A stretch of DNA of 40,548 bases from a virus (taxonomy: Duplodnaviria > Caudoviricetes), in IMG/VR virus record IMGVR_UViG_3300050162_000081, positions 1 to 40,548 of that record; one strand, given 5' to 3'. Shown here piece after piece: positions 2,973 to 35,263 of this stretch (the stretch's first letter is position 1; the number at the start of each line of letters is the position of its first letter). The notes below the pieces were generated by a model. It worked only from the letters and a program-made list of their open reading frames with translations, made no database searches and had not been told where the DNA came from. Both the position numbers and the translations under genes were made by a program.

Positions 2973-4220
2973 ATGAGTAATCTAATATCCACTAACTTTG
3001 GTGAGCTAGGTATTACTATCACTAATCAGCAGATACTAGCTGTAGAAAAGATGATAGTATCATTCCTATTGCGTAAGACTCATCCACTGACTTTTGATGG
3101 TCCCTATCTAGGTGTCGATCCGGTAGTCTTTACAAAATCGGATTACACAGCTTTATTCGATGTGTTCAAAATACACGAGAAAGATTTCGAACAAGTCATT
3201 CGAAATACCCCATCGATTAATAGAAATTTTATCGTATCATCTGATCCGTATAATCTACTTTGTGTATGGTTGGTACACTTAGCTCCTATTTACATAAAAG
3301 ATAAACAGGTCCGGCATGCATTCATGACGAATGTGTTGTTTCTATTTAACACCAAGATCTTCACCTCAGTGGTAAATAATACTTTTAGGCATGGCGCTAA
3401 TAGAGGTGTGATGGAAGCTACCATCGCCACACTCACTAAGAAATCTGATATCATTAAATACGAAAGCTGGAAGCGAGTCATCGAATCACATTGTGAAAAG
3501 ATACTCGATCCAACTGATCGGTTTTATGACATTCTAGTAAATGGTGGTCCAGATGAAGCCTTCTTAGGAGTGGTAGCTGAGATCCAGACTATGCTCAGAG
3601 CTAAGATCGTGACATTCGCTAGAGTGTATTACGACATACATGCTAGTGGAGAGAGCGTAGGTTTTAAATCAGCTATCAGTGAAGGCGATGAGGGCGAAAA
3701 GATTATAGCTCAAACAGCCTCTGTCATAAACTCAGCTACATCAGCTATGGTCATCGAGGTTTTAAATCCTAATGTATTTGTAAGCGATACATTAGTGGAT
3801 GACATAGCTAATGAGTTTAGCACTATATCCCCAAGGATGTTAAAGACAGCTCTACTCAAGATAAACGAAACTGCTGTGATACAGCAATCCTCTAGGACAT
3901 TCGATAAGGTAACCACTGATAAAGATGGTCCTTTGTATATCGGAGTGAGATCTCTAATCGTAGAGATTATCAGATCTATGATTAGTCTGGTGAGATCTAA
4001 GAATATAAACATGGCTAACCACGCTAAGGTCTTTAAACAGCTTAGAGACTCCTACAGTGCATCCAGACAGCTGGATAAAGATATCCTCGCTGTAAAGCGC
4101 TCTGTAGCCGAATTAGTGGACCCTTTTAACATCACCACGAACGTAGCTAGTCAGTCCACATTAAGATTAGCTGTAATTTACTATATACTCTATCGCACAA
4201 TTCTAAAAATGAAGACATGA
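2973..4220 (+). CDS. Conserved phiKZ-like jumbo phage protein (possibly virion-associated)
   Basis: 415 aa, RBS GAGG. The motifs YLGVDPVVF and INRNFIVSSDPYNLLCVWLVH resemble a phiKZ-like core family as I recall it; exact orthologue not assigned. Confidence 0.6.
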   Translation: MSNLISTNFGELGITITNQQILAVEKMIVSFLLRKTHPLTFDGPYLGVDPVVFTKSDYTALFDVFKIHEKDFEQVIRNTPSINRNFIVSSDPYNLLCVWLVHLAPIYIKDKQVRHAFMTNVLFLFNTKIFTSVVNNTFRHGANRGVMEATIATLTKKSDIIKYESWKRVIESHCEKILDPTDRFYDILVNGGPDEAFLGVVAEIQTMLRAKIVTFARVYYDIHASGESVGFKSAISEGDEGEKIIAQTASVINSATSAMVIEVLNPNVFVSDTLVDDIANEFSTISPRMLKTALLKINETAVIQQSSRTFDKVTTDKDGPLYIGVRSLIVEIIRSMISLVRSKNINMANHAKVFKQLRDSYSASRQLDKDILAVKRSVAELVDPFNITTNVASQSTLRLAVIYYILYRTILKMKT

Positions 4221-4433: not shown

Positions 4434-7310
4434 ATGAATGGAAGTATGACCATGATCGAAGCTCAGACTAAGACCACTGAGAGACTAGCTATTACCATCA
4501 AAAATACTCCTCCTAGGAGTATGCCAGTACCAGATGTGGTAGTAGATGATTCTCGAGATGACTATCTGACCGCTTTTGGTAAATCTACTTTAAAGGATCG
4601 ATATCTTACTGAGGACGAGAGCTTCCAAGATCGATTCGCTAACTGCGTGAGATATTACGCGGATGATAAAGATCATGCGCAGCGCATGTATGATTATATT
4701 TCTAATCTATGGTGCATTCCTTCTACACCAGTCTTGGCCAACGGCGGGACACTCAAAGGAAATCTCATATCGTGTTTTGTCAATGAGGTAGAGGATTCAT
4801 TAGATGGTATTCAGGACGTCTGGGAGGAGAATGTTTGGCTGGGATCCAGAGGAGGTGGGTTAGGTACTTATTATAGTAATGTTAGATCGCTTGGTGAGAT
4901 AGCTGGACTCAACGGAAAAACATCGGGGGCGATGAGTTTTATTAAGGTAAATGACTCACTAGTTTCATGCATAAGTCAAGGCCTTAATCGTAGAGGGGCT
5001 GGGGCAATCTACATGGATGTGTCTCATCCTGAAATTGAGACATTCATTGAGATGCGCAAAACCGCAGGAGGGGATCCTAACCGTAAGGCTCCTAACCTAC
5101 ACCACGGAGTATGTATCTCCGATGCTTTTATGGAAGCAGTCGAGAATGGAGATGAATGGGCTCTGATCTCCCCTAAAACGGGTATAGAGATCGAGCGAGT
5201 GGATGCGCAAGGGCTAATGGCCAAGATACTCATGACTCGCGTAGAAACTGGGGAACCTTACTTGTTGTTTAGTGATACTATTCGGCGTTCCACACCAGAA
5301 CATCATCGTCGATCTGGCCTTCATCCTAAGACGTCAAATTTGTGCGTTGCTCCAGAGACGCGTATTCTGACTCACAACGGTTACGTCCGTATTGAAGACG
5401 TAGCCGGTACGGAGCAGGAAGTCTGGAATGGTAAACAGTGGTCGGTAGCTCAAGTTGCCAAGACTGGTGAAAATCAAAAACTAGTAGAAGTACATCTATC
5501 CAATGGTGTTGTATTAAGTGTTACTGAATACCATAAATGGAAAATCCAGATTGGTTATGGTAACTGGGCTACCAATTCAAAAATGGTCGCCACCCATGAA
5601 CTTCAGATTGGGGATAAGTTGGTAAAGCCGAACTTCGCCGTAGTAGAAGGCGGAATTGAGGGTGATCTGGATTTTGCATATCGCAATGGTTTCTATACTG
5701 CAGATGGTACCTCACAATCAAATGGTACTCATGAGCGTATCTATCTTTATGGAGAAAAGCGAGACCTTCTTCCTATTTTCCAAGAAATGGATCACCGGAG
5801 AATTAGTGAATTTGAGAATGGTGGTAAACGGCACGCTATCTATTACAATCCAGGCGAGTTACTTCCTAAGTTCACAGTCCCCATGGATTGCGATGTGTCC
5901 ACAAAGCTAGCATGGTTCGCTGGATTCCTAGATGGCGATGGTACCATCGCCCGCAATGGTGACACTGAAAGTATTCAGTGTTCATCTGTTAATCTCGAAT
6001 TCCTTCGTGAAGTACGCTTGATGCTCACCACGCTGGGGGTAGATGCTAAAATCGGTCTCATGAAAGAAGCCGGAAACTATATGCTACCCGATGGAAAAGG
6101 AGGTGATGCGAGCTATTACTGTCAAGCAACATATCGACTATTTCTTACGGCAGGAGACTCTCAGCGATTGCTGCAGTTGGGGCTCAGGCTCAATCGTCTA
6201 AAAATCGCTATGCGAGATACGCAGCGCGATGCGGGTGGGTTTGTGACAGTGATTGATATCATCGACAACGGTCGTTTCGATGATACTTATTGTTTCAACG
6301 AACCTCTCGAGCACATGGGCGTGTTTGAAGGTATACTCACTGGAAATTGTTGTGAAATAACACTACCCACAGGCCCCGATCATCACGGAATTGATCGTAC
6401 TGCGCTGTGCTGTCTATTTCAGCTTAACCTAGAAATGTGGGATGCTTGGAATAAACATCCCACATTCATATCGGATGTCGCTAGATATATGGATAATGTC
6501 CTACAAGACTTTATCGACAATGCGGGTGAGAAATTCGTCAAATCTAGATATTCGGCTTCAAGAGAACGGTCGATTGGTATTGGCACTATGGGATTTCATA
6601 GCTTTCTCCAGTCCAAAAATATTTCATTCGAATCGGCTATGGCTAAAGTGTGGAACTTGAAGTTCTTTAGTCACATCCGTGGTAAGCTCGACGATGCCTC
6701 TGTGGAGCTCGCTCATGAGCGCGGGGCCTGTCCTGATGCTGCAGAGCACGGGATCATGGAACGCTTCTCATACAAGATGGCTCAGGCTCCTACTGCATCT
6801 GTATCAATCATCTGTGGTACAACGTCTCCCGGTATCGACCCCATCACAGCTAATATATTCACACAGAAGACATTGGATGGATCATTCGAAGTAAAGAATA
6901 GACATCTAGTCGAACTACTTACTAAACTAGGTAAGAATACAAAAGAAGTCTGGAACAGTATCAATGACAATGACGGTAGTGTCTATCATCTAGATTTTCT
7001 GACAGATCAAGAGAAAGACGTCTACAAAACGGCATTTGAAATTAACCCAAGATGGCTCATTGATTTTGCAGCAGACCGAGCTCCATTTATTTGCCAAGCT
7101 CAATCACTTAACCTTTGGGTGGAGCCTGATATTCATAAACGCGATCTATGGAAACTACATCAGTTGATCTGGAAGAGTGGTATTAAGACCGCCTATTATT
7201 TGCGTTCTAAATCTATTCAGCGAGCTGATAGTACTACTAGTAATGGTACAAGCTTCCTCACTAGGACATATGTCAAAGTGGATTACGAGGTCTGCGTCGC
7301 TTGCGAATAG
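4434..7310 (+). CDS. nrdA: Class Ia ribonucleotide reductase alpha subunit with intein
   Basis: PSTPVLAN, ISCF, GGGLG, spliced SNLCCEI, APTASVS, QAQSLN, KTAYYLRS and C-terminal CVAC. No N-terminal ATP cone; the N-terminus resembles the alphaproteobacterial short type. Confidence 0.95.
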   Translation: MNGSMTMIEAQTKTTERLAITIKNTPPRSMPVPDVVVDDSRDDYLTAFGKSTLKDRYLTEDESFQDRFANCVRYYADDKDHAQRMYDYISNLWCIPSTPVLANGGTLKGNLISCFVNEVEDSLDGIQDVWEENVWLGSRGGGLGTYYSNVRSLGEIAGLNGKTSGAMSFIKVNDSLVSCISQGLNRRGAGAIYMDVSHPEIETFIEMRKTAGGDPNRKAPNLHHGVCISDAFMEAVENGDEWALISPKTGIEIERVDAQGLMAKILMTRVETGEPYLLFSDTIRRSTPEHHRRSGLHPKTSNLCVAPETRILTHNGYVRIEDVAGTEQEVWNGKQWSVAQVAKTGENQKLVEVHLSNGVVLSVTEYHKWKIQIGYGNWATNSKMVATHELQIGDKLVKPNFAVVEGGIEGDLDFAYRNGFYTADGTSQSNGTHERIYLYGEKRDLLPIFQEMDHRRISEFENGGKRHAIYYNPGELLPKFTVPMDCDVSTKLAWFAGFLDGDGTIARNGDTESIQCSSVNLEFLREVRLMLTTLGVDAKIGLMKEAGNYMLPDGKGGDASYYCQATYRLFLTAGDSQRLLQLGLRLNRLKIAMRDTQRDAGGFVTVIDIIDNGRFDDTYCFNEPLEHMGVFEGILTGNCCEITLPTGPDHHGIDRTALCCLFQLNLEMWDAWNKHPTFISDVARYMDNVLQDFIDNAGEKFVKSRYSASRERSIGIGTMGFHSFLQSKNISFESAMAKVWNLKFFSHIRGKLDDASVELAHERGACPDAAEHGIMERFSYKMAQAPTASVSIICGTTSPGIDPITANIFTQKTLDGSFEVKNRHLVELLTKLGKNTKEVWNSINDNDGSVYHLDFLTDQEKDVYKTAFEINPRWLIDFAADRAPFICQAQSLNLWVEPDIHKRDLWKLHQLIWKSGIKTAYYLRSKSIQRADSTTSNGTSFLTRTYVKVDYEVCVACE
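5343..6347 (+). mobile_element. Intein with LAGLIDADG homing endonuclease in nrdA, 335 aa
   Basis: CVAPETRILT…TEYHKW…GFYTADG…AGFLDGDG…GILTGN, followed by Cys, the catalytic Cys of the NLCxE motif. Confidence 0.93.
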
Positions 7311-8704: not shown

Positions 8705-9706
8705 ATGAGCCCTTCTCCATGTAGAGTATGTAAGTCTGAAAGATTCGTTAGTCCCAAAGGACATGTTTATTGTAAGACATGTCGTAATAACTATCTATCT
8801 AAGAATAAAGAAAACACATCGCGGCAGCAGAGTGAATACAAAGAAGTACGTAGAGATAATCTACTGACCAAAGAAATAACTCCCTGCGTCAAATGTGGAT
8901 CAGAAAGATCTATCACCAAGAAAGGTGACGTGTATTGTAAACCCTGCGTCAAGCGATATCGAGACGCTAATAAAGAAAAGATTAAATCATACCTAAATGA
9001 ATATCGATCCGAAAATAGAGAATCAAATATAGAGTACCAGAAAGAATACCGTAGACAAGGTAGAGATAAAGAATTAACAAAATACATCGAGAAGTATCCT
9101 ACTAGATATGTACCTAGTAAATACGGTATCGTAAATGATCATCCGGACTATGGTGTTTGGAGAAATATGAAAAGACGTTGTTACACTGAGGACTATGAAA
9201 ACTATTCATCATACGGTGGGCGGGGCGTCATTGTATGCGACAGATGGTTAGAGTCGTTTGATAACTTCATGGATGACATGGGCGAACGGCCTGAGCCGAA
9301 AAATCTATATTCCATTGATCGCATCGATAACAATGGTAATTACACGCCAGTAAATTGTAGATGGGCTACGATTGATGAACAGAATAACAATAAAAGGAGC
9401 AATGTCGAATACCGTCTCAGTATTAGAGCAAAAGAACTATTAGTATATCAAGGAAAGGAACTTACGCTACATGCATTCAGTGCTTTAACGGGACTACATA
9501 TCGATGCGGTCAAATATAGATATGCACTATCGTCAAATGCGGATAATATACTAGACAATACTCATCCTAGACGAGCTTACCGTTGGAGAGGCTTTAATTA
9601 CACCATGACTGAATTATCTATTATCTCGAAGCTCGATTTCAGTAAACTCAGTTATCGGATCAATAACTCTGGTTGGGATATAGAAAGAGCTATGACTACT
9701 CTTTAA
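8705..9706 (+). CDS. Free-standing HNH homing endonuclease with two N-terminal zinc-ribbon repeats
   Basis: CxxC…CxxC twice; YGGRGVIVCDRW; SIDRIDNNGNYTPVNCRWAT. Confidence 0.85.
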   Translation: MSPSPCRVCKSERFVSPKGHVYCKTCRNNYLSKNKENTSRQQSEYKEVRRDNLLTKEITPCVKCGSERSITKKGDVYCKPCVKRYRDANKEKIKSYLNEYRSENRESNIEYQKEYRRQGRDKELTKYIEKYPTRYVPSKYGIVNDHPDYGVWRNMKRRCYTEDYENYSSYGGRGVIVCDRWLESFDNFMDDMGERPEPKNLYSIDRIDNNGNYTPVNCRWATIDEQNNNKRSNVEYRLSIRAKELLVYQGKELTLHAFSALTGLHIDAVKYRYALSSNADNILDNTHPRRAYRWRGFNYTMTELSIISKLDFSKLSYRINNSGWDIERAMTTL

Positions 9707-17177: not shown

Positions 17178-18233
17178 ATGTACGATGAAAATAACAAATT
17201 GGAATCACTCACCCCTGAGCAAGAGGCTCGTTTTCCTGAATTTGTAAAATTCGGATTATCCATCGGATTATCGACAGAGCGATCAGATCGTGTAGCTGGT
17301 GAGAAGGCATTACGAGATCATTATCTCGCATGCGGTCTGGATGCTCCTACATCGATACAGTGGTTCGACAGTCCTCTCCATGCAACATTGGCATACGTAA
17401 ATGAAGAAGTCAGGAACAAAGTCTGGAACAAAGTCTGGAACAAAGTCTGGAACGAAGTCGGGATCAAAGTCTGGAACAAAGTCGGGAACGAAGTCAGGAG
17501 CGAAGTCTGGAACGAAGTCAGGAGCGAAGTCGGGAACAAAGTCTGGAACAAAGTCGGGAACAAAGTCTGGAACAAAGTCGGGAACAAAGTCTGGAACGAA
17601 GTCGGGAACAAAGTCTGGAATGTTCTTGGTGCATTACTCGATGCTGATTACGCTTCTCTTATTTTAGCGTATGATCAGTATGGGATTGGTTTTCCAACAA
17701 AATGTATTACATTCTTAGAAGTAAATAAACATATATGGTGGTATTATGCTACAGACACCACAGTATACGTTAGTGACCGACCAGTCTTTATAAAGACCAA
17801 CAACGAAGGACATCTGCACTGTGAAAATGGTAAAGCCATTGAATTTGCGGATGGTTTTGGTATTAGCTCATGGCATGGTCAAACTATCCCAAATGAATGG
17901 GTCACTGGTAATCTCCCCACACCAAGTGAAGCTCTCAATTGGGAGAATATGGACCAACGATCGGTTGTATGTGAACTAATCGGATGGGCTAATTTGCGTG
18001 AACACTGTAACTCAACCACCATCGACATCGATGACGACCCTATGTGGGGTGAGTTGGTGGAAATGGATCTTCCGGATAGCCCTGGAGAACGATTTCTATT
18101 TGTGACATGTGGTACTGGTAGACCATTTGCATTATTGGTTCCTAAAGAGACTCAGACTGTGGATGAAGCACAATCAGTCCTCCATGGAGGACTTCCTGTA
18201 GAAATACTCAAGAATTGTATCGAAAGGACGTGA
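17178..18233 (+). CDS. DUF6745-like protein with tetrapeptide repeat
   Basis: LTPEQEARFP…, V(W/G/R)N(K/E) repeats, SDRP…LHCENGKAIEFADGF…WHG, VTCGTGRPFAL. Confidence 0.8.
   Translation: MYDENNKLESLTPEQEARFPEFVKFGLSIGLSTERSDRVAGEKALRDHYLACGLDAPTSIQWFDSPLHATLAYVNEEVRNKVWNKVWNKVWNEVGIKVWNKVGNEVRSEVWNEVRSEVGNKVWNKVGNKVWNKVGNKVWNEVGNKVWNVLGALLDADYASLILAYDQYGIGFPTKCITFLEVNKHIWWYYATDTTVYVSDRPVFIKTNNEGHLHCENGKAIEFADGFGISSWHGQTIPNEWVTGNLPTPSEALNWENMDQRSVVCELIGWANLREHCNSTTIDIDDDPMWGELVEMDLPDSPGERFLFVTCGTGRPFALLVPKETQTVDEAQSVLHGGLPVEILKNCIERT
17409..17620 (+). repeat. 12-nt tandem repeat GTC(T/G/A)GGA(A/G/T)C(A/G)AA, 17 full units plus one partial
   Basis: Read directly from the sequence. Confidence 0.95.
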
Positions 18234-18234
18234 C

Positions 18235-18387
18235 ATGACATTTGAATTTGATATGACTCGTAAGACTATCCCTCAGGGCGATGTACTGTTGGTACCTATT
18301 GTTAAGATCCCAGAAGGGGTAGTTCAAGTATCACCAGAAAATGGTCAGTACATTATCACACATAGTGAGTCGGGGCACAATCGGTGA
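18235..18387 (+). pseudogene. Truncated 5' copy (50 aa) of the 18933 gene
   Basis: MTFEFDMTRKTIPQGDVLLVP…THSESGHNR*; 31/50 identical, ungapped, to the N-terminus of the 18933 ORF. Its TGA overlaps the HNH GTG. Confidence 0.85.
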
Positions 18388-18890
18388 AACCACTGGATTT
18401 GAATGGTGGTATATTTGGTCGACTGAGAGTTCTTAGTAAAGCAAGTTCAAAATCCGATGGAGCCATTTGGTGGATATGTCGGTGTGATTGCGGAAATATA
18501 AAAGAAGCTCGAGGCTCAGACCTAAAACGTGGGTTTATATCAAGTTGCGGGTGTTGGAAAAGGGATGCTCCAAAACTAAGAACAACTCATGGTGGTTCGG
18601 ACACCAGATTGTATCATATATGGCAGGCGATGCGTAATAGAACTGGCAATCAAAATGCTTCCAAATTTCACTACTACGGTGGTAGAGGTATCACTGTTTG
18701 TGATGAATGGATAAATTCCGATAGTTTTCCAGAATTCTACAGTTGGGCTATGAGTAATGGTTATCAGGCACATCTGACCATCGATCGCATCGATAATTAC
18801 AAAGGTTATAGTCCTGATAACTGCAGGTGGGCCACCTGGACGGAACAAATGAATAATAAACGGCCAAGAAATGAAATAGAAGACAAATAA
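18384..18890 (+). CDS. HNH homing endonuclease inserted in the QGDV-motif gene
   Basis: WICRCDCGN, SCGC, YGGRGITVCDEW, TIDRIDNYKGYSPDNCRWAT. Confidence 0.88.
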   Translation: MKPLDLNGGIFGRLRVLSKASSKSDGAIWWICRCDCGNIKEARGSDLKRGFISSCGCWKRDAPKLRTTHGGSDTRLYHIWQAMRNRTGNQNASKFHYYGGRGITVCDEWINSDSFPEFYSWAMSNGYQAHLTIDRIDNYKGYSPDNCRWATWTEQMNNKRPRNEIEDK

Positions 18891-18932
18891 TCCAGATATC
18901 GATAGCCGGTATTTCACAGGAGATATATACTA

Positions 18933-19289
18933 ATGAAATTCGAGTTTGACATGACGAGAAAATCAATTCCTCAGGGAGATGTTTATTTAATTCCTATAAA
19001 GATGATTCCAGAAGAAGCAGTCATTATCGATCCGACGGATGGTGTGTTTATTATCGCTCATTCCGAAACAGGCCATTCGCATGTAATCAAGGAACGGCCT
19101 GATATCAAACAGTTCTCAGGTATGGATATGTTCCAGGGTTTCCTGGAGATCGGTTCAGATGAGCTAACTGAATTGATCCACCTTCGTTCTCATCATACAC
19201 ACCGGGCCCAGCCTATTCTTCCTGGCGCCTATCTCATTCAGCGACAAGGTCGTCCGACACCGGAAGGTTGGAAGCGAGCTGTAGACTAA
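18933..19289 (+). CDS. Small QGDV/ETGHxH His-motif protein, usual partner of DUF6745 proteins
   Basis: PQGDV…HSETGHSH…HHTH…PGAYLIQRQ…AVD; RBS AGGAG. Confidence 0.75.
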   Translation: MKFEFDMTRKSIPQGDVYLIPIKMIPEEAVIIDPTDGVFIIAHSETGHSHVIKERPDIKQFSGMDMFQGFLEIGSDELTELIHLRSHHTHRAQPILPGAYLIQRQGRPTPEGWKRAVD

Positions 19290-19299
19290 TAGTGTACTC

Positions 19300-19343
19300 A
19301 TGGGTAGGAGGCATATGCCTCCTACCCATACTCTTTTATTTTT
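19300..19343 (+). terminator. Rho-independent terminator
   Basis: ATGGGTAGGAGGC-ATAT-GCCTCCTACCCAT, followed by a T-rich tract. Confidence 0.75.
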
Positions 19344-19410
19344 GTAAACTTTGTTAATATCACAAATACAACTATCAGATGATCAGTGTAAATCAGATGC
19401 ATCGAATCAC

Positions 19411-19418
19411 TATATTAC
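19411..19418 (+). promoter_or_regulatory. phiKZ-type early promoter motif TATATTAC
   Basis: Exact match before RBS AAGGAG. Confidence 0.65.
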
Positions 19419-19441
19419 TGATATGAAATAAGGAGATTTGT

Positions 19442-19774
19442 ATGCGTAGACAAGACTACCTCAATAGAGCTCAAGTTATCCTCGATGAGGCGCAGAGGCG
19501 CATAGATGAAGAAATTCATCCATGTAATAAGTGTAAATTTTATAAACATGGTAGTCGGACGTTGCTGATAGATAGCGAGTGTACTCACCCAATCGTACAA
19601 GTACTCATTAATAATACTACCAATGGTAGTGCCAAACGAGATTTACAAAGATGTGATACACAAAGGTCGACTCATAGCACGTGGGGATCAACTGTATGCG
19701 GTCCAGATGGTGAGCTATTCGAAATGGAAACTAGATCGATATTTCGTCAATTTATAGATTGGATGTTTAAATGA
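19442..19774 (+). CDS. Cys-rich protein (CxxC…C…C…CGPDG..FE)
   Basis: Paralogue of the 35736 ORF. Confidence 0.65.
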   Translation: MRRQDYLNRAQVILDEAQRRIDEEIHPCNKCKFYKHGSRTLLIDSECTHPIVQVLINNTTNGSAKRDLQRCDTQRSTHSTWGSTVCGPDGELFEMETRSIFRQFIDWMFK

Positions 19775-26330: not shown

Positions 26331-27071
26331 ATGACTAGATCAGTTCCTACAAAATACTTCCGGGAAAAGAAAAGTCCTCGTGGTGAATTCCCATTCCAAG
26401 ACTACCACTGCTATGGAGGTTTTGGTAGTGATGGGGTATACCGTTACCAACTCGTCCATAAGGACACTTATGAAAAGCTCTACCTCAGTCGAGCTCGATA
26501 CAACATGTGTGTCCATCTCAAACGTATCCTCACTAAGGATGAGCGAGTAGAGAAGATCGATGGCCCTAGTGATGAACTGGATAATCTAAAACTCATCACA
26601 CCTCAGATCAGAGCAGAGATACAGAAGGCTAACTTAACTAAACACTGTGTCATCTGCGATAGTGAATTCGTAGCGATCCGCGATCGTACTAAGACATGTT
26701 CACTAGAGTGTAAGAACGCGCTCAAGCGTCAATCGATGACAGGAACTACTGCGGCTACACTAGCGGCCAAATGCGTCGAGTGCGGTAGTCGATTTATAGC
26801 TCAGTCGCCTAGAGCTATCACATGTAGTGATCGGTGTCGTTATACTAGAAAGAGGAAACTTGGCGGCCATATGGCTAGCGATGGTAGTTATATCTCCAAA
26901 CCTAGTACCAATCGTGTGCGTAAACCTAAAGTCATAAAACCAAAAGAGACGTTTCGTAATAAATGTGAAATTTGTGAACATTATTTCACCGCTAAAACCC
27001 CTGAGCAGGACGTATGCTTCAGCCATCATTGTCAAACTGTATTAGTAGAACTAGGGAACTTGGATATATGA
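26331..27071 (+). CDS. Zinc-finger repeat protein with degenerate HNH-like segment
   Basis: Three CxxC…F…C..(.)C repeats; RARYNMCVHLKRILTKDERVEKIDG…DELDNL. Confidence 0.65.
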   Translation: MTRSVPTKYFREKKSPRGEFPFQDYHCYGGFGSDGVYRYQLVHKDTYEKLYLSRARYNMCVHLKRILTKDERVEKIDGPSDELDNLKLITPQIRAEIQKANLTKHCVICDSEFVAIRDRTKTCSLECKNALKRQSMTGTTAATLAAKCVECGSRFIAQSPRAITCSDRCRYTRKRKLGGHMASDGSYISKPSTNRVRKPKVIKPKETFRNKCEICEHYFTAKTPEQDVCFSHHCQTVLVELGNLDI

Positions 27072-33334: not shown

Positions 33335-33433
33335 TTGCCGTTAATAGAATTAGTGACGCATGACATGTTCGTCCTCGAGAATTTGGTAGACTATTACGTA
33401 AATCCCGTAATAGTTGACATAGTTTATTTATGA
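33335..33433 (+). pseudogene. Truncated 5' copy (32 aa) of the macrodomain gene at 34289
   Basis: TTG start after AAGGGGA; (M)PLIELVTHDMFVLENLVDYYVNPV-IVDIVYL*; 14/25 identical, ungapped, to MPLFEIITSDMFQCSDVVDLYINPV. Its TGA overlaps the HNH ATG. Confidence 0.8.
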
Positions 33434-34302
33434 CCGAAGAACAACGTTGTCTAACATGTAGTAGTGAGAAGATAAGATATTCATCAGGTAGATTACGATG
33501 TCGAATATGTGAGCGCAGGTACGATCGCTTATCATACGTAAGAAACCGAGAACAGCGGCTTATAAAACGTAAAAAAGAATACGACAAAGCCGATAAATCT
33601 AGACTACTTGAGTTAAAAAGAAATTGGTACAAAAGACAGCATTACCTAAGAAATACCTGGGTGGGTATAAATAATAGGTGTTATAACCCATCTAACGAAA
33701 GTTATAATTTTTATGGTGGACGAGGTATTGCCGTACACGAACCATGGATAATGAAACGAGGTAAGACTCACGATATAAGAGACCAGAATATAGTAATACT
33801 TGATAGGTTTGTTTCGTGGGTAGAAGAGAATTTAGGAGATAGACCGGCAGCATGCTCTTTGGATCGTATAAACAACAGTGGTAATTATGAACCTGGAAAT
33901 TTACGTTGGGCAACTGCTGAGCAGCAGGCCAATAACACTAGGAGAAATGTGAAATATAAGAAATCTATATCGGAATACCAATTAATTGATACTCCGACTG
34001 GAACATGTGCTATATTGAGTTTAGCAGAAAAAACAGGTATATTTACAAAAGTCTTAACTTCTAGAGCCGCTAGATTTTCAGATTACAATTATCTTGTAAA
34101 CGATCCAAAAATACTCTCACGAAAACATCTCTATAAAAACAATCTATACTCCACAGATGAAATCTGTTATATAAATGGATGTTCATATGACGTGGTAAGA
34201 AGCAGATTTCGATACGGATGGACCGTTGAAGAAGTAATCGAAACTAATCTAATGCCGAGAGGCAATAATACTAATTGGAGAAATACCAATGCCTCTATTT
34301 GA
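33430..34302 (+). CDS. HNH homing endonuclease inserted in the macrodomain gene
   Basis: N-terminal CxxC…CxxC; YGGRGI; SLDRINNSGNYEPGNLRWAT. Confidence 0.88.
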   Translation: MTEEQRCLTCSSEKIRYSSGRLRCRICERRYDRLSYVRNREQRLIKRKKEYDKADKSRLLELKRNWYKRQHYLRNTWVGINNRCYNPSNESYNFYGGRGIAVHEPWIMKRGKTHDIRDQNIVILDRFVSWVEENLGDRPAACSLDRINNSGNYEPGNLRWATAEQQANNTRRNVKYKKSISEYQLIDTPTGTCAILSLAEKTGIFTKVLTSRAARFSDYNYLVNDPKILSRKHLYKNNLYSTDEICYINGCSYDVVRSRFRYGWTVEEVIETNLMPRGNNTNWRNTNASI

Positions 34303-35263
34303 GATAATAACAAGTGATATGTTTCAGTGCTCAGATGTCGTAGATTTATATATTAACCCCGTAAACACGATGTCTACCCCAGGGTCAGTGGGCCTCGCTA
34401 CAGTATTCCGAGATAAAGTACCTAGTTACATTCCACAATACAAAGAGGCCTGTCGTACTAAAGAATTACGGATGGGTACTCTACAGGTCATCGAAGATAC
34501 CAATCAGTCTTGGGGTATGGTGAATCTACCTGTTAAAGAACACTATGGTAATCACTCCGAACCTAGTGATATCAGTAGGAGTTTAGAAGCACTTAGAAAT
34601 CTACTCAAAGAAACCACATATCGATATAGTACTATCTGTCTACCCATGTTGACAGTAGGTATGGGACCAAAAGATTATGAGATAGTTTACCCTCCCATGA
34701 TAGATCATCTCAGTGACTTAGATGCGACGGTGTTTCTATCTATGCACCCTGACAAGACTGAATCTAGACCTAAATATCTGACTATTATCGGTCCCGAAGA
34801 TTATGGGTTAAATAAGATCGAAACTGATAGTATCGATTGGGTAATCGATAAAGCTATGGAGTCTTGGGGGACTAGTCTATCAGACTACACTGGAATCATC
34901 TCAGGAGGTCATACCGGAGTCGATCGGTATATCGGCGGTAATGATTACCTAAAAGATATCGAAGCCACGTACGTCTATCGTAAGACGAATAAACCATGCT
35001 TAGTAATTAAACCTAATGAAATCAGAAATGGCTCTAGAGCTAATGTCACACATGGTGAGTTACTCTGTGAAATCGCTAGCGACATCATTATGTTTAAACC
35101 GAACAATCACAATAACAATCGCATGACCGCAATGCAGCTGTATATCGAAGAGCAAAAAGAAAAGAGAGAGGCGCTGGGACTACCTCCTAGACGAGTAGCT
35201 ATCTTCGGTGATAAATCCACCAGTCTGTATAACACTAATATCAAGATATCTGTAAGGGAATAA
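34289..35263 (+). CDS. Macrodomain (DarG/Poa1p-like) fused to a SLOG/YspA-like domain
   Basis: DMF…INPVNT…GLATVF…NLPVKEHY…LPMLTVGMG; C-terminal IISGGHTGVD…EIASDIIMF. Confidence 0.7.
   Translation: MPLFEIITSDMFQCSDVVDLYINPVNTMSTPGSVGLATVFRDKVPSYIPQYKEACRTKELRMGTLQVIEDTNQSWGMVNLPVKEHYGNHSEPSDISRSLEALRNLLKETTYRYSTICLPMLTVGMGPKDYEIVYPPMIDHLSDLDATVFLSMHPDKTESRPKYLTIIGPEDYGLNKIETDSIDWVIDKAMESWGTSLSDYTGIISGGHTGVDRYIGGNDYLKDIEATYVYRKTNKPCLVIKPNEIRNGSRANVTHGELLCEIASDIIMFKPNNHNNNRMTAMQLYIEEQKEKREALGLPPRRVAIFGDKSTSLYNTNIKISVRE

Follow-up and report, generated by a model that had tools for sequence, protein, structure and literature searches.

A 698-nt insertion polymorphism joining a PacI-like HNH nuclease gene to a foreign 5' gene half in a leaf-litter phage, and its probable spread by splicing-free homing

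The window described here is the whole 40,548-nt stretch of the IMG/VR virus record IMGVR_UViG_3300050162_000081 (Duplodnaviria; Caudoviricetes), and the sequencing runs that contain it are leaf-litter metagenomes in 23 of 24 rows. An open reading frame (ORF) at 2973-4220 has matches of 24-27% in phages of 200-305 kb, those of Ralstonia, Burkholderia and Pseudomonas among them, so that the window belongs to a jumbo phage that is distantly phiKZ-like. Elsewhere in the window there are a terminase-like ORF with two repeated intein-like segments (165-2900), an nrdA gene with a LAGLIDADG-containing insert (4434-7310) and two further HNH-type genes that carry no flanking duplication, one a third PacI-like family member after nrdB (8705-9706) and the other a phrog_1271 match (26331-27071). 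The locus of interest is laid out as follows, where 'QGD gene' is a working name for the target gene, taken from its N-terminal motif.

17178..18233, + strand: DUF6745 gene (PF20530, E=3.5e-14), the upstream partner of the target gene; its stop lies 1 nt before the old start
18235..18381, + strand: native 5' half of the target QGD gene (codons 1-49), left stranded; the same as the N-terminal half of the empty-allele protein P0002
18382..19079, + strand: putatively mobile cassette, 698 nt, defined by the joint of 18381 to 19080 in runs X11 and X10; the ends may shift by 1 nt
18384..18890, + strand: gene for a PacI-like His-Me finger (HNH) nuclease, 168 aa, GTG start (phrog_374, E=2e-64)
18891..18932, + strand: 42-nt spacer with the Shine-Dalgarno sequence AGGAG of the replacement gene at 18918-18922 (from the sequence)
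18933..19079, + strand: foreign 5' half of the QGD gene carried by the cassette (codons 1-49), with H-S-E-T-G-H-S at its end; 31/49 identical to the stub
19080..19289, + strand: resident 3' half (codons 50-118) of the QGD gene, common to both alleles; 69/69 identical to P0002
19300..19329, + strand: terminator-like hairpin with a 13-bp stem at the end of the DUF6745-stub-HNH-QGD unit (consensus match only)

A preliminary description of this DNA had proposed that an HNH gene splits a target gene and supplies it with a new 5' end, and most of the layout on which it drew is confirmed. A 50-aa ORF (18235-18387) does begin 1 nt past the DUF6745 stop (ORF and PF20530 match), and it aligns without gaps to residues 1-49 of the ORF at 18933-19289 (31/49 identical, E=2e-22); its frame continues into the cassette as far as a TGA at 18385-18387, which overlaps the GTG of the nuclease ORF (18384-18890) in the tetranucleotide GTGA. 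Equally as described, the stub breaks inside the conserved motif H-S-E-(S/T)-G-H-x-H, in which H43, S44 and H48 do not vary across 60 aligned rows, and the nuclease gene is followed by a 42-nt spacer with a ribosome-binding site (AGGAG) and then by a complete gene. The ORF at 18933-19289 is full length (118 aa, as in homologues), so that the target is not split into two complementary polypeptides, and the nuclease ORF has its own start and stop and lies out of frame with the target. The layout is no assembly artefact, since contigs of other runs cross both junctions, the left at 17907-18527 (X14) and 18102-18421 (X12) and the right at 18843-19457 (X12) and 18978-19128 (X14).

Calculated anti-Shine-Dalgarno pairing is -7.4 kcal/mol at the start of the replacement gene versus -5.2 at the nuclease start, where the Shine-Dalgarno is weak. 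RNA folds at the three gene starts were not above those of shuffled sequences, and sigma-70 sites were fewer than chance. A 7-bp hairpin (18389-18410) lies directly 3' of the nuclease start codon, with a terminator-like score not above chance, and could damp nuclease expression. Of 153 family loci, 125 have a DUF6745 match upstream of QGD; the DUF6745 gene of the window holds a 12-nt tandem repeat tract at 17400-17620, of which run X10 has a variant 108 nt shorter.

The nuclease gene is present or absent at one locus between otherwise near-identical alleles. Contigs of X11 and X10 join 18381 to 19080 with 698 nt absent and an ambiguity of 1 nt; the X11 contig (4546 nt) shows no other letter over 17568-18381 (814 nt) and 19080-19500 (421 nt) and extends beyond the terminator-like hairpin, and the short side of the X10 joint measures only 29 letters. 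The same join is found in protein P0002 (JGI, 2 contigs), in which the 49 residues of the stub run seamlessly into 69/69 identical C-terminal residues. HNH-less alleles in which the upstream fragment meets the gene's 3' part had been expected, and these contigs and P0002 are such alleles. The empty joint occurs in two of eight runs examined, labelled DNA (a guessed label), both of which also have cassette pieces; the six others (X12-X16 and X20) have cassette pieces and no joint, in contigs, which drop rare variants. The depth of the empty contig in X11 is 11.7, as against 2.1-6.1 for the cassette pieces, depth not being equivalent to share of genomes. The cassette begins 2 nt before the nuclease start codon and ends with codon 49 of the replacement, and it neither duplicates nor deletes target DNA. 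The 698-nt segment is thus an insertion polymorphism that comprises the nuclease gene, a ribosome-binding site and a foreign set of the first 49 codons of the target. Single-base population variants are also present, at 18245 and 18272, two amino-acid-changing sites in the stub region, and at 18481, where the nuclease change R33Q is shared with P0180.

By comparison with homologues, the stub is the native 5' half and the replacement is a foreign homologue that has diverged throughout. The closest other homologue, P0003, a full-length 118-aa protein of the stub's type, shares 59/69 residues with the resident C-terminal half, 36/49 with the stub and 30/49 with the replacement, and this affinity to the stub marks the replacement half as foreign; at 18 positions that differ between the two halves P0003 sides nine times with the stub and three times with the replacement, and T11 and L18, common to the stub and P0003, are seen in 0/56 other homologues. 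An ancestry of the new 5' half distinct from that of the 3' half, as had been anticipated, is therefore indicated by the P0003 comparison. The proposal that the replacement was recoded near the break did not survive: stub and replacement use different codons at 18 of their 31 identical residues, distributed along all 147 nt, and the 11 differences in the last 21 nt are no significant excess over the 48 in the first 126 nt (p=0.24). No donor of the replacement half was found, and a tree of the 49-aa N-terminal halves gave no resolution.

The nuclease consists of an SH3-like N-terminal barrel, a Cys-rich segment and the constellation D134-R135...Y142...N146/N158; its frame and motif are intact and homologues start at the same residue. 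D134-R135 align to D74-H75 of I-HmuI (E=0.0013), for which the residue roles are given in the accessible part of PMC12724721, and this alignment places Arg at the position usually held by the general-base His. The D/E-R...Y...N-C motif recurs in 118 of 120 homologues, and Y142 is invariant in 19 rows. The top Foldseek match was PacI (3ldy), a weak one (E=0.14), and in VIA another PacI structure (3m7k) ranked third (Z 5.2, rmsd 3.3, 80 aligned), likewise weak and tied with unrelated chains; no residue-level correspondence of Y142 to the catalytic Tyr of PacI was seen in these matches. PacI is described, in the portions of PMC5714182 and PMC3384342 available, as having no general-base His and using a loop Tyr instead. 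The window nuclease resembles PacI-like His-Me finger nucleases in lacking this His, in its conserved loop Tyr and in a helix-plus-finger region that aligns to PacI 3m7k; it differs from PacI, a restriction enzyme, in its extra SH3-like N-terminal barrel, and the structural match is weak. For the one PacI-like phage enzyme that was tested, in Skunavirus, the accessible text of PMC12724721 reports no significant exclusion, which counts against activity here, and the literature search found no active PacI-like phage homing enzyme.

The closest relatives of this nuclease whose context is known share one genomic setting. Among 115 HNH loci with DNA, DUF6745 and QGD flank the nuclease in each of the five best-scoring (L247, L251, L271, L275 and L381; 55-60% identity), and the remaining 110 have neither gene as a neighbour. 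The twelve clade rows with known context, the window included, are all directly 5' of QGD, and a branch with SH-aLRT 98 (no bootstrap) separates these 12 operon-linked rows from 27 rows found elsewhere; 18 further proteins, whose context is not known, fall inside the operon-linked side. In L251, L271, L275 and L381 the nuclease is a plain intergenic gene and there is no stub, and in-frame HNH::QGD fusions number seven, L247 plus six of 124 homologous proteins. The start of the nuclease and the stop of DUF6745 overlap (ATGA) in L247 and L251, just as the nuclease overlaps the stub stop in the window. Across these sequences, then, the nuclease clade is tied to the DUF6745-QGD gene pair in three layouts: intergenic, fused, and with a stub. 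The stub arrangement that the preliminary description took as the design of the element is present, but within the DUF6745-QGD clade it is seen in the window alone, the nuclease usually lying between DUF6745 and an intact QGD gene or being fused to it. Fusions directly after DUF6745 with a complete QGD protein were noted at L247:1773-2615 and in P0067, P0069, P0072, P0073, P0084, P0099 and L422.

The nuclease is optional, because no copy stands beside QGD in 153 family loci. Other nucleases share the DUF6745/QGD slot, namely an HNH_3 gene in L397 and two related HNHs outside the clade in L421/L429 and L422, and to judge from these sequences the slot is a hotspot for selfish nucleases; in L414 the same slot holds a short remnant resembling the C-terminus of the L397 HNH_3 gene. 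Two samples of 401 genomes, taken from the order and the class of G001, yielded no further clade member, scans of viral contigs with single proteins returned one spurious target locus and six distant nuclease loci, GenBank phages gave only one distant target homologue, and with the first DNA pattern 120 of 150 loci were without an HNH match. A flank-duplication test, run on 87 of 90 and 26 of 33 HNH ORFs with the rest skipped for short flanks, found the stub layout only in the two cases of the window, which indicates that it is rare in the nuclease family. Two candidates were rejected on inspection: L079/L080, in which 140-aa paralogues flank the gene on both sides, and L091, in which the repeat is a regulator gene.

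The target itself shows where the nuclease may act. Forty-four QGD loci were collected by a C-terminal pattern, which limits motif bias, and the distinct ones were aligned with the linked alleles and P0001-P0003, the set for the residue-49 count having been fetched mostly, not wholly, by that pattern. Residue 49 is His in 40 of 41 alleles unlinked to the clade versus one of 11 linked alleles, in which it is replaced by D six times and by S, N, T and V; the sole linked allele with His49 is changed at residue 48. The canonical motif is kept in 31/41 unlinked and 0/11 linked alleles, and at none of 21 other conserved columns do more than three of the 11 linked alleles deviate. These 11 alleles do not count as independent (they show 8 distinct motif forms), and p-values, inflated because they ignore relatedness, are not relied on. 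The identity gap between N- and C-terminal halves to the nearest unlinked relative is 0.24 in linked alleles versus 0.12 in 21 controls, and L421 and L422, with their related nucleases outside the clade, keep the canonical motif. All residue-49 substitutions in linked alleles, as in the empty allele, alter the first base of the codon. Among the unlinked alleles His49 is missing only from the empty allele of this very phage, which has Asn49; Asn49 also occurs in the clade-linked P0069 and in 3/56 other close homologues. Residue 49 is also the last codon of the cassette, a result reached by a separate route, and the loss of His49 in clade-linked alleles makes this junction codon the likely target of the nuclease.

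Several further features of the QGD protein were observed. In L251, L271 and L275 QGD alleles of two subfamilies have a common motif, K/Q-S-E-T-H-H-D-H, with three changes in the otherwise invariant His cluster. Six close QGD homologues (P0012, P0021, P0034, P0043, P0045 and P0055) have N, S or D at position 49, and these are predicted from their sequence to be nuclease-linked. The target protein has a confidently predicted all-beta fold (pLDDT 90); in PDB searches Foldseek gave no match at E<=0.001 and the best Z was 3.4, there was no Pfam or PHROG match, and its Atlas clusters are unnamed. Its conserved histidines suggest metal binding.

Taken together, these results make it probable that the 698-nt segment spreads by homing, with no splicing involved, and that its site of entry is codons 47-50 of QGD. 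The proposal of a splicing-free homing element made in the preliminary description is to this extent supported as a reading, with the amendment that its replacement half is a foreign homologue and not a locally recoded one. The nuclease would nick or cut the G-H-H-H codons of the QGD gene. In the usual layouts, intergenic or fused, repair would copy the nuclease together with the donor QGD 5' half that lies between the nuclease gene and the cut; in intronless homing in T4, as far as the available text of PMC2988022 goes, the cut likewise lies away from the nuclease gene, and the DNA that separates the two is inherited along with it. In this phage the donor, about 60% identical, may have been too diverged for a crossover in DUF6745, so that the left end would have been joined at the break and the old 5' half left behind as the stub. 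The stub would then offer perfect homology up to the break, and later homing among sibling phages could proceed like that of a mirror-image WHO element, the target gene staying whole from its new start. The nuclease would probably be made by re-initiation at the GTGA overlap of the stub, in the way that its relatives overlap the DUF6745 stop; translational coupling has been proposed for T4 mobE in the part of the T4 review consulted. The replacement half, with its 11 differences in the last 21 nt, may be resistant to the nuclease, as the preliminary description proposed. A point against the homing reading is that element-borne polymorphisms alone did not block nicking in the case of MobA, according to the accessible text of bioRxiv 2022.08.31.505936.

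It is unlikely, although conceivable, that the cassette is instead a dead end, the nuclease targeting canonical H-H-H alleles of other phages and the cassette no longer spreading here. The Asn49 empty allele may, from its sequence, already be resistant: its substitution hits the first base of the codon, as every residue-49 substitution in linked alleles does, the two alleles coexist with the empty contig the deeper one in X11 (within the stated limit on depth), and WHO targets evolve resistance (10.64898/2026.08.13.744650, accessible part). The Asn49 empty allele may even be the product of aborted homing in which three bases were copied from the stub. The stub, however, has the same codon and is broken directly after it, which is most simply understood if that allele was cut; Asn49 is not peculiar to this phage, as the three other homologues show, and the nuclease has kept its frame and motif. 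Much less probable is a domesticated, optional partner of the DUF6745-QGD module that arrived by ordinary recombination and whose own cutting is irrelevant. Strict linkage to one operon, the seven in-frame fusions and the altered His cluster would fit such a partner, but the nuclease is absent beside QGD in the 153 loci, the same slot is used by unrelated nucleases, the replacements at residue 49 are varied and not convergent, and both cassette ends meet at one bond in the same codon.

A group I intron with an HNH frame, whose splicing would restore the P0002 protein, is a highly improbable reading of the 698 nt. Of two registers, one gives a U at the end of the upstream part and a G at the end of the insert, the usual boundaries of group I introns; against this, a scan of 17900-19500 against Rfam, with E up to 10, found no group I match, the final 147 nt form a homologue codon for codon and have a Shine-Dalgarno of their own, and relatives carry the nuclease outside the gene. 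The earlier judgement that there is no room for an intron core stands, only 44 nt being non-coding and no intron family appearing in the Rfam scan, as does the exclusion of an intein, there being stops after the stub and after the nuclease and no Pfam match. It is scarcely credible that the filled state is an old partial duplication followed by a chance deletion in the empty allele, or that one allele is artefactual: the direction is deduced and the X10 joint is short on one side (29 letters), but the joint has only 1 nt of common sequence, the X11 contig spans it with identical letters on both sides (814 and 421), the same join appears independently in a JGI protein, and P0003, the nearest relative, is full length at 118 aa and of the stub type.

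The probable homing cassette finds its closest functional parallels among eukaryotes. According to the accessible text of PMC7282813, WHO elements of Torulaspora and Lachancea yeasts, which target FBA1, also act without splicing, as units of a nuclease and a diverged gene half, and leave the displaced half as a fragment (of FBA1) able to serve as a homology arm; that text and the available part of 10.64898/2026.08.13.744650 also describe gene halves of two different histories and target codons that diversify. The window differs in its host, a phage and not a yeast, and in the half replaced, the 5' half with a new translation start and not the 3' half. Its nuclease is a PacI-like HNH versus a LAGLIDADG-zinc finger enzyme, it is single-copy with no clusters seen, and cleavage, shown for WHO, is inferred here. 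The mORF hybrids of fungal mitochondria (Allomyces atp6; Glomus atp6, atp9, cox2 and nad3) similarly combine a nuclease ORF with a foreign gene end, the displaced native end matching an element-free relative; as described in the consulted part of PMC3630166 they swap C-termini and use LAGLIDADG or GIY-YIG nucleases, in contrast to an N-terminal half with its own Shine-Dalgarno. By analogy, the cassette would in its working be a 5' mirror image of WHO elements and mORF hybrids, while belonging to neither by nuclease family or host.

Among phages, the free-standing T4 seg/mob endonucleases similarly lie beside the target gene with a start that overlaps an upstream stop, and are inherited with the DNA between gene and cut (PMC2988022, accessible text); the relatives L251, L271, L275 and L381 have this T4-type layout. 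In the T4 systems the cut is far from the insertion and the old sequence is cleanly replaced (same source and extent), unlike the window, where the insertion point is the inferred target and the old half remains as a stub. MobA (T4 genes 39/60) and MobE (Aeh1 nrdA) are phage HNH nucleases inside a gene that has neither intron nor intein (bioRxiv 10.1101/2022.08.31.505936; PMC2988022), and with MobA comes a short stretch of homologous replacement DNA in which its nick site lies (bioRxiv 10.1101/2022.08.31.505936). In the available portions of these papers both split the protein in two with insert-borne tails and delete 55-75 nt; here a single-chain gene is rebuilt and nothing is deleted. On that partial record MobA is the nearest phage precedent found, but one that splits its target. 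The layout is not described in the accessible parts of the ICP1 survey (PMC10448857) or the T4 review, and in a literature search covering few subscription papers no paper was found on replacement of a 5' half by a phage homing nuclease, nor anything combining DUF6745 and phage.

The architecture that the preliminary description had also placed at 33335 is present there. In this second case (33335-35263, + strand) a 32-codon stub with a TTG start matches the first 25 residues of a macro-domain gene (13/25 identical), and between the two lies an HNH gene of the same family, outside the DUF6745 clade; no empty allele was found among 16 proteins, and no viral locus by pattern.

Gene-end replacement has been described as a third class of homing element, in yeasts and fungal mitochondria, for which there is no clear route of origin. 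What the present comparison of sequences would add is a co-occurring empty allele, a locus-bound clade with three layouts and a pinpointed candidate target. The phage case offers both natural alleles, base-exact boundaries and a candidate target codon at which two independent lines of evidence converge, and its relatives show plausible ancestral (intergenic) and alternative (fused) layouts. A broader reading is put forward tentatively, at somewhat less than even chances: a Tyr-type HNH lineage may have specialised on the DUF6745-QGD pair of many unrelated phages and driven the His change from three splicing-free layouts, and the window may capture the birth of a WHO-like element, still segregating, its join possibly made via a covalent tyrosine-DNA intermediate. 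The origin of such elements from free-standing nucleases, homing by Tyr-type HNH enzymes and an arms race over the target codon are opened to test, and a 168-aa protein with short DNA substrates suffices for those questions. For annotators, a short stub before an HNH gene marks a chimeric gene. If the homing reading is true, this phage carries a selfish element that needs no splicing, and previous descriptions of its type come from yeasts and fungal mitochondria.
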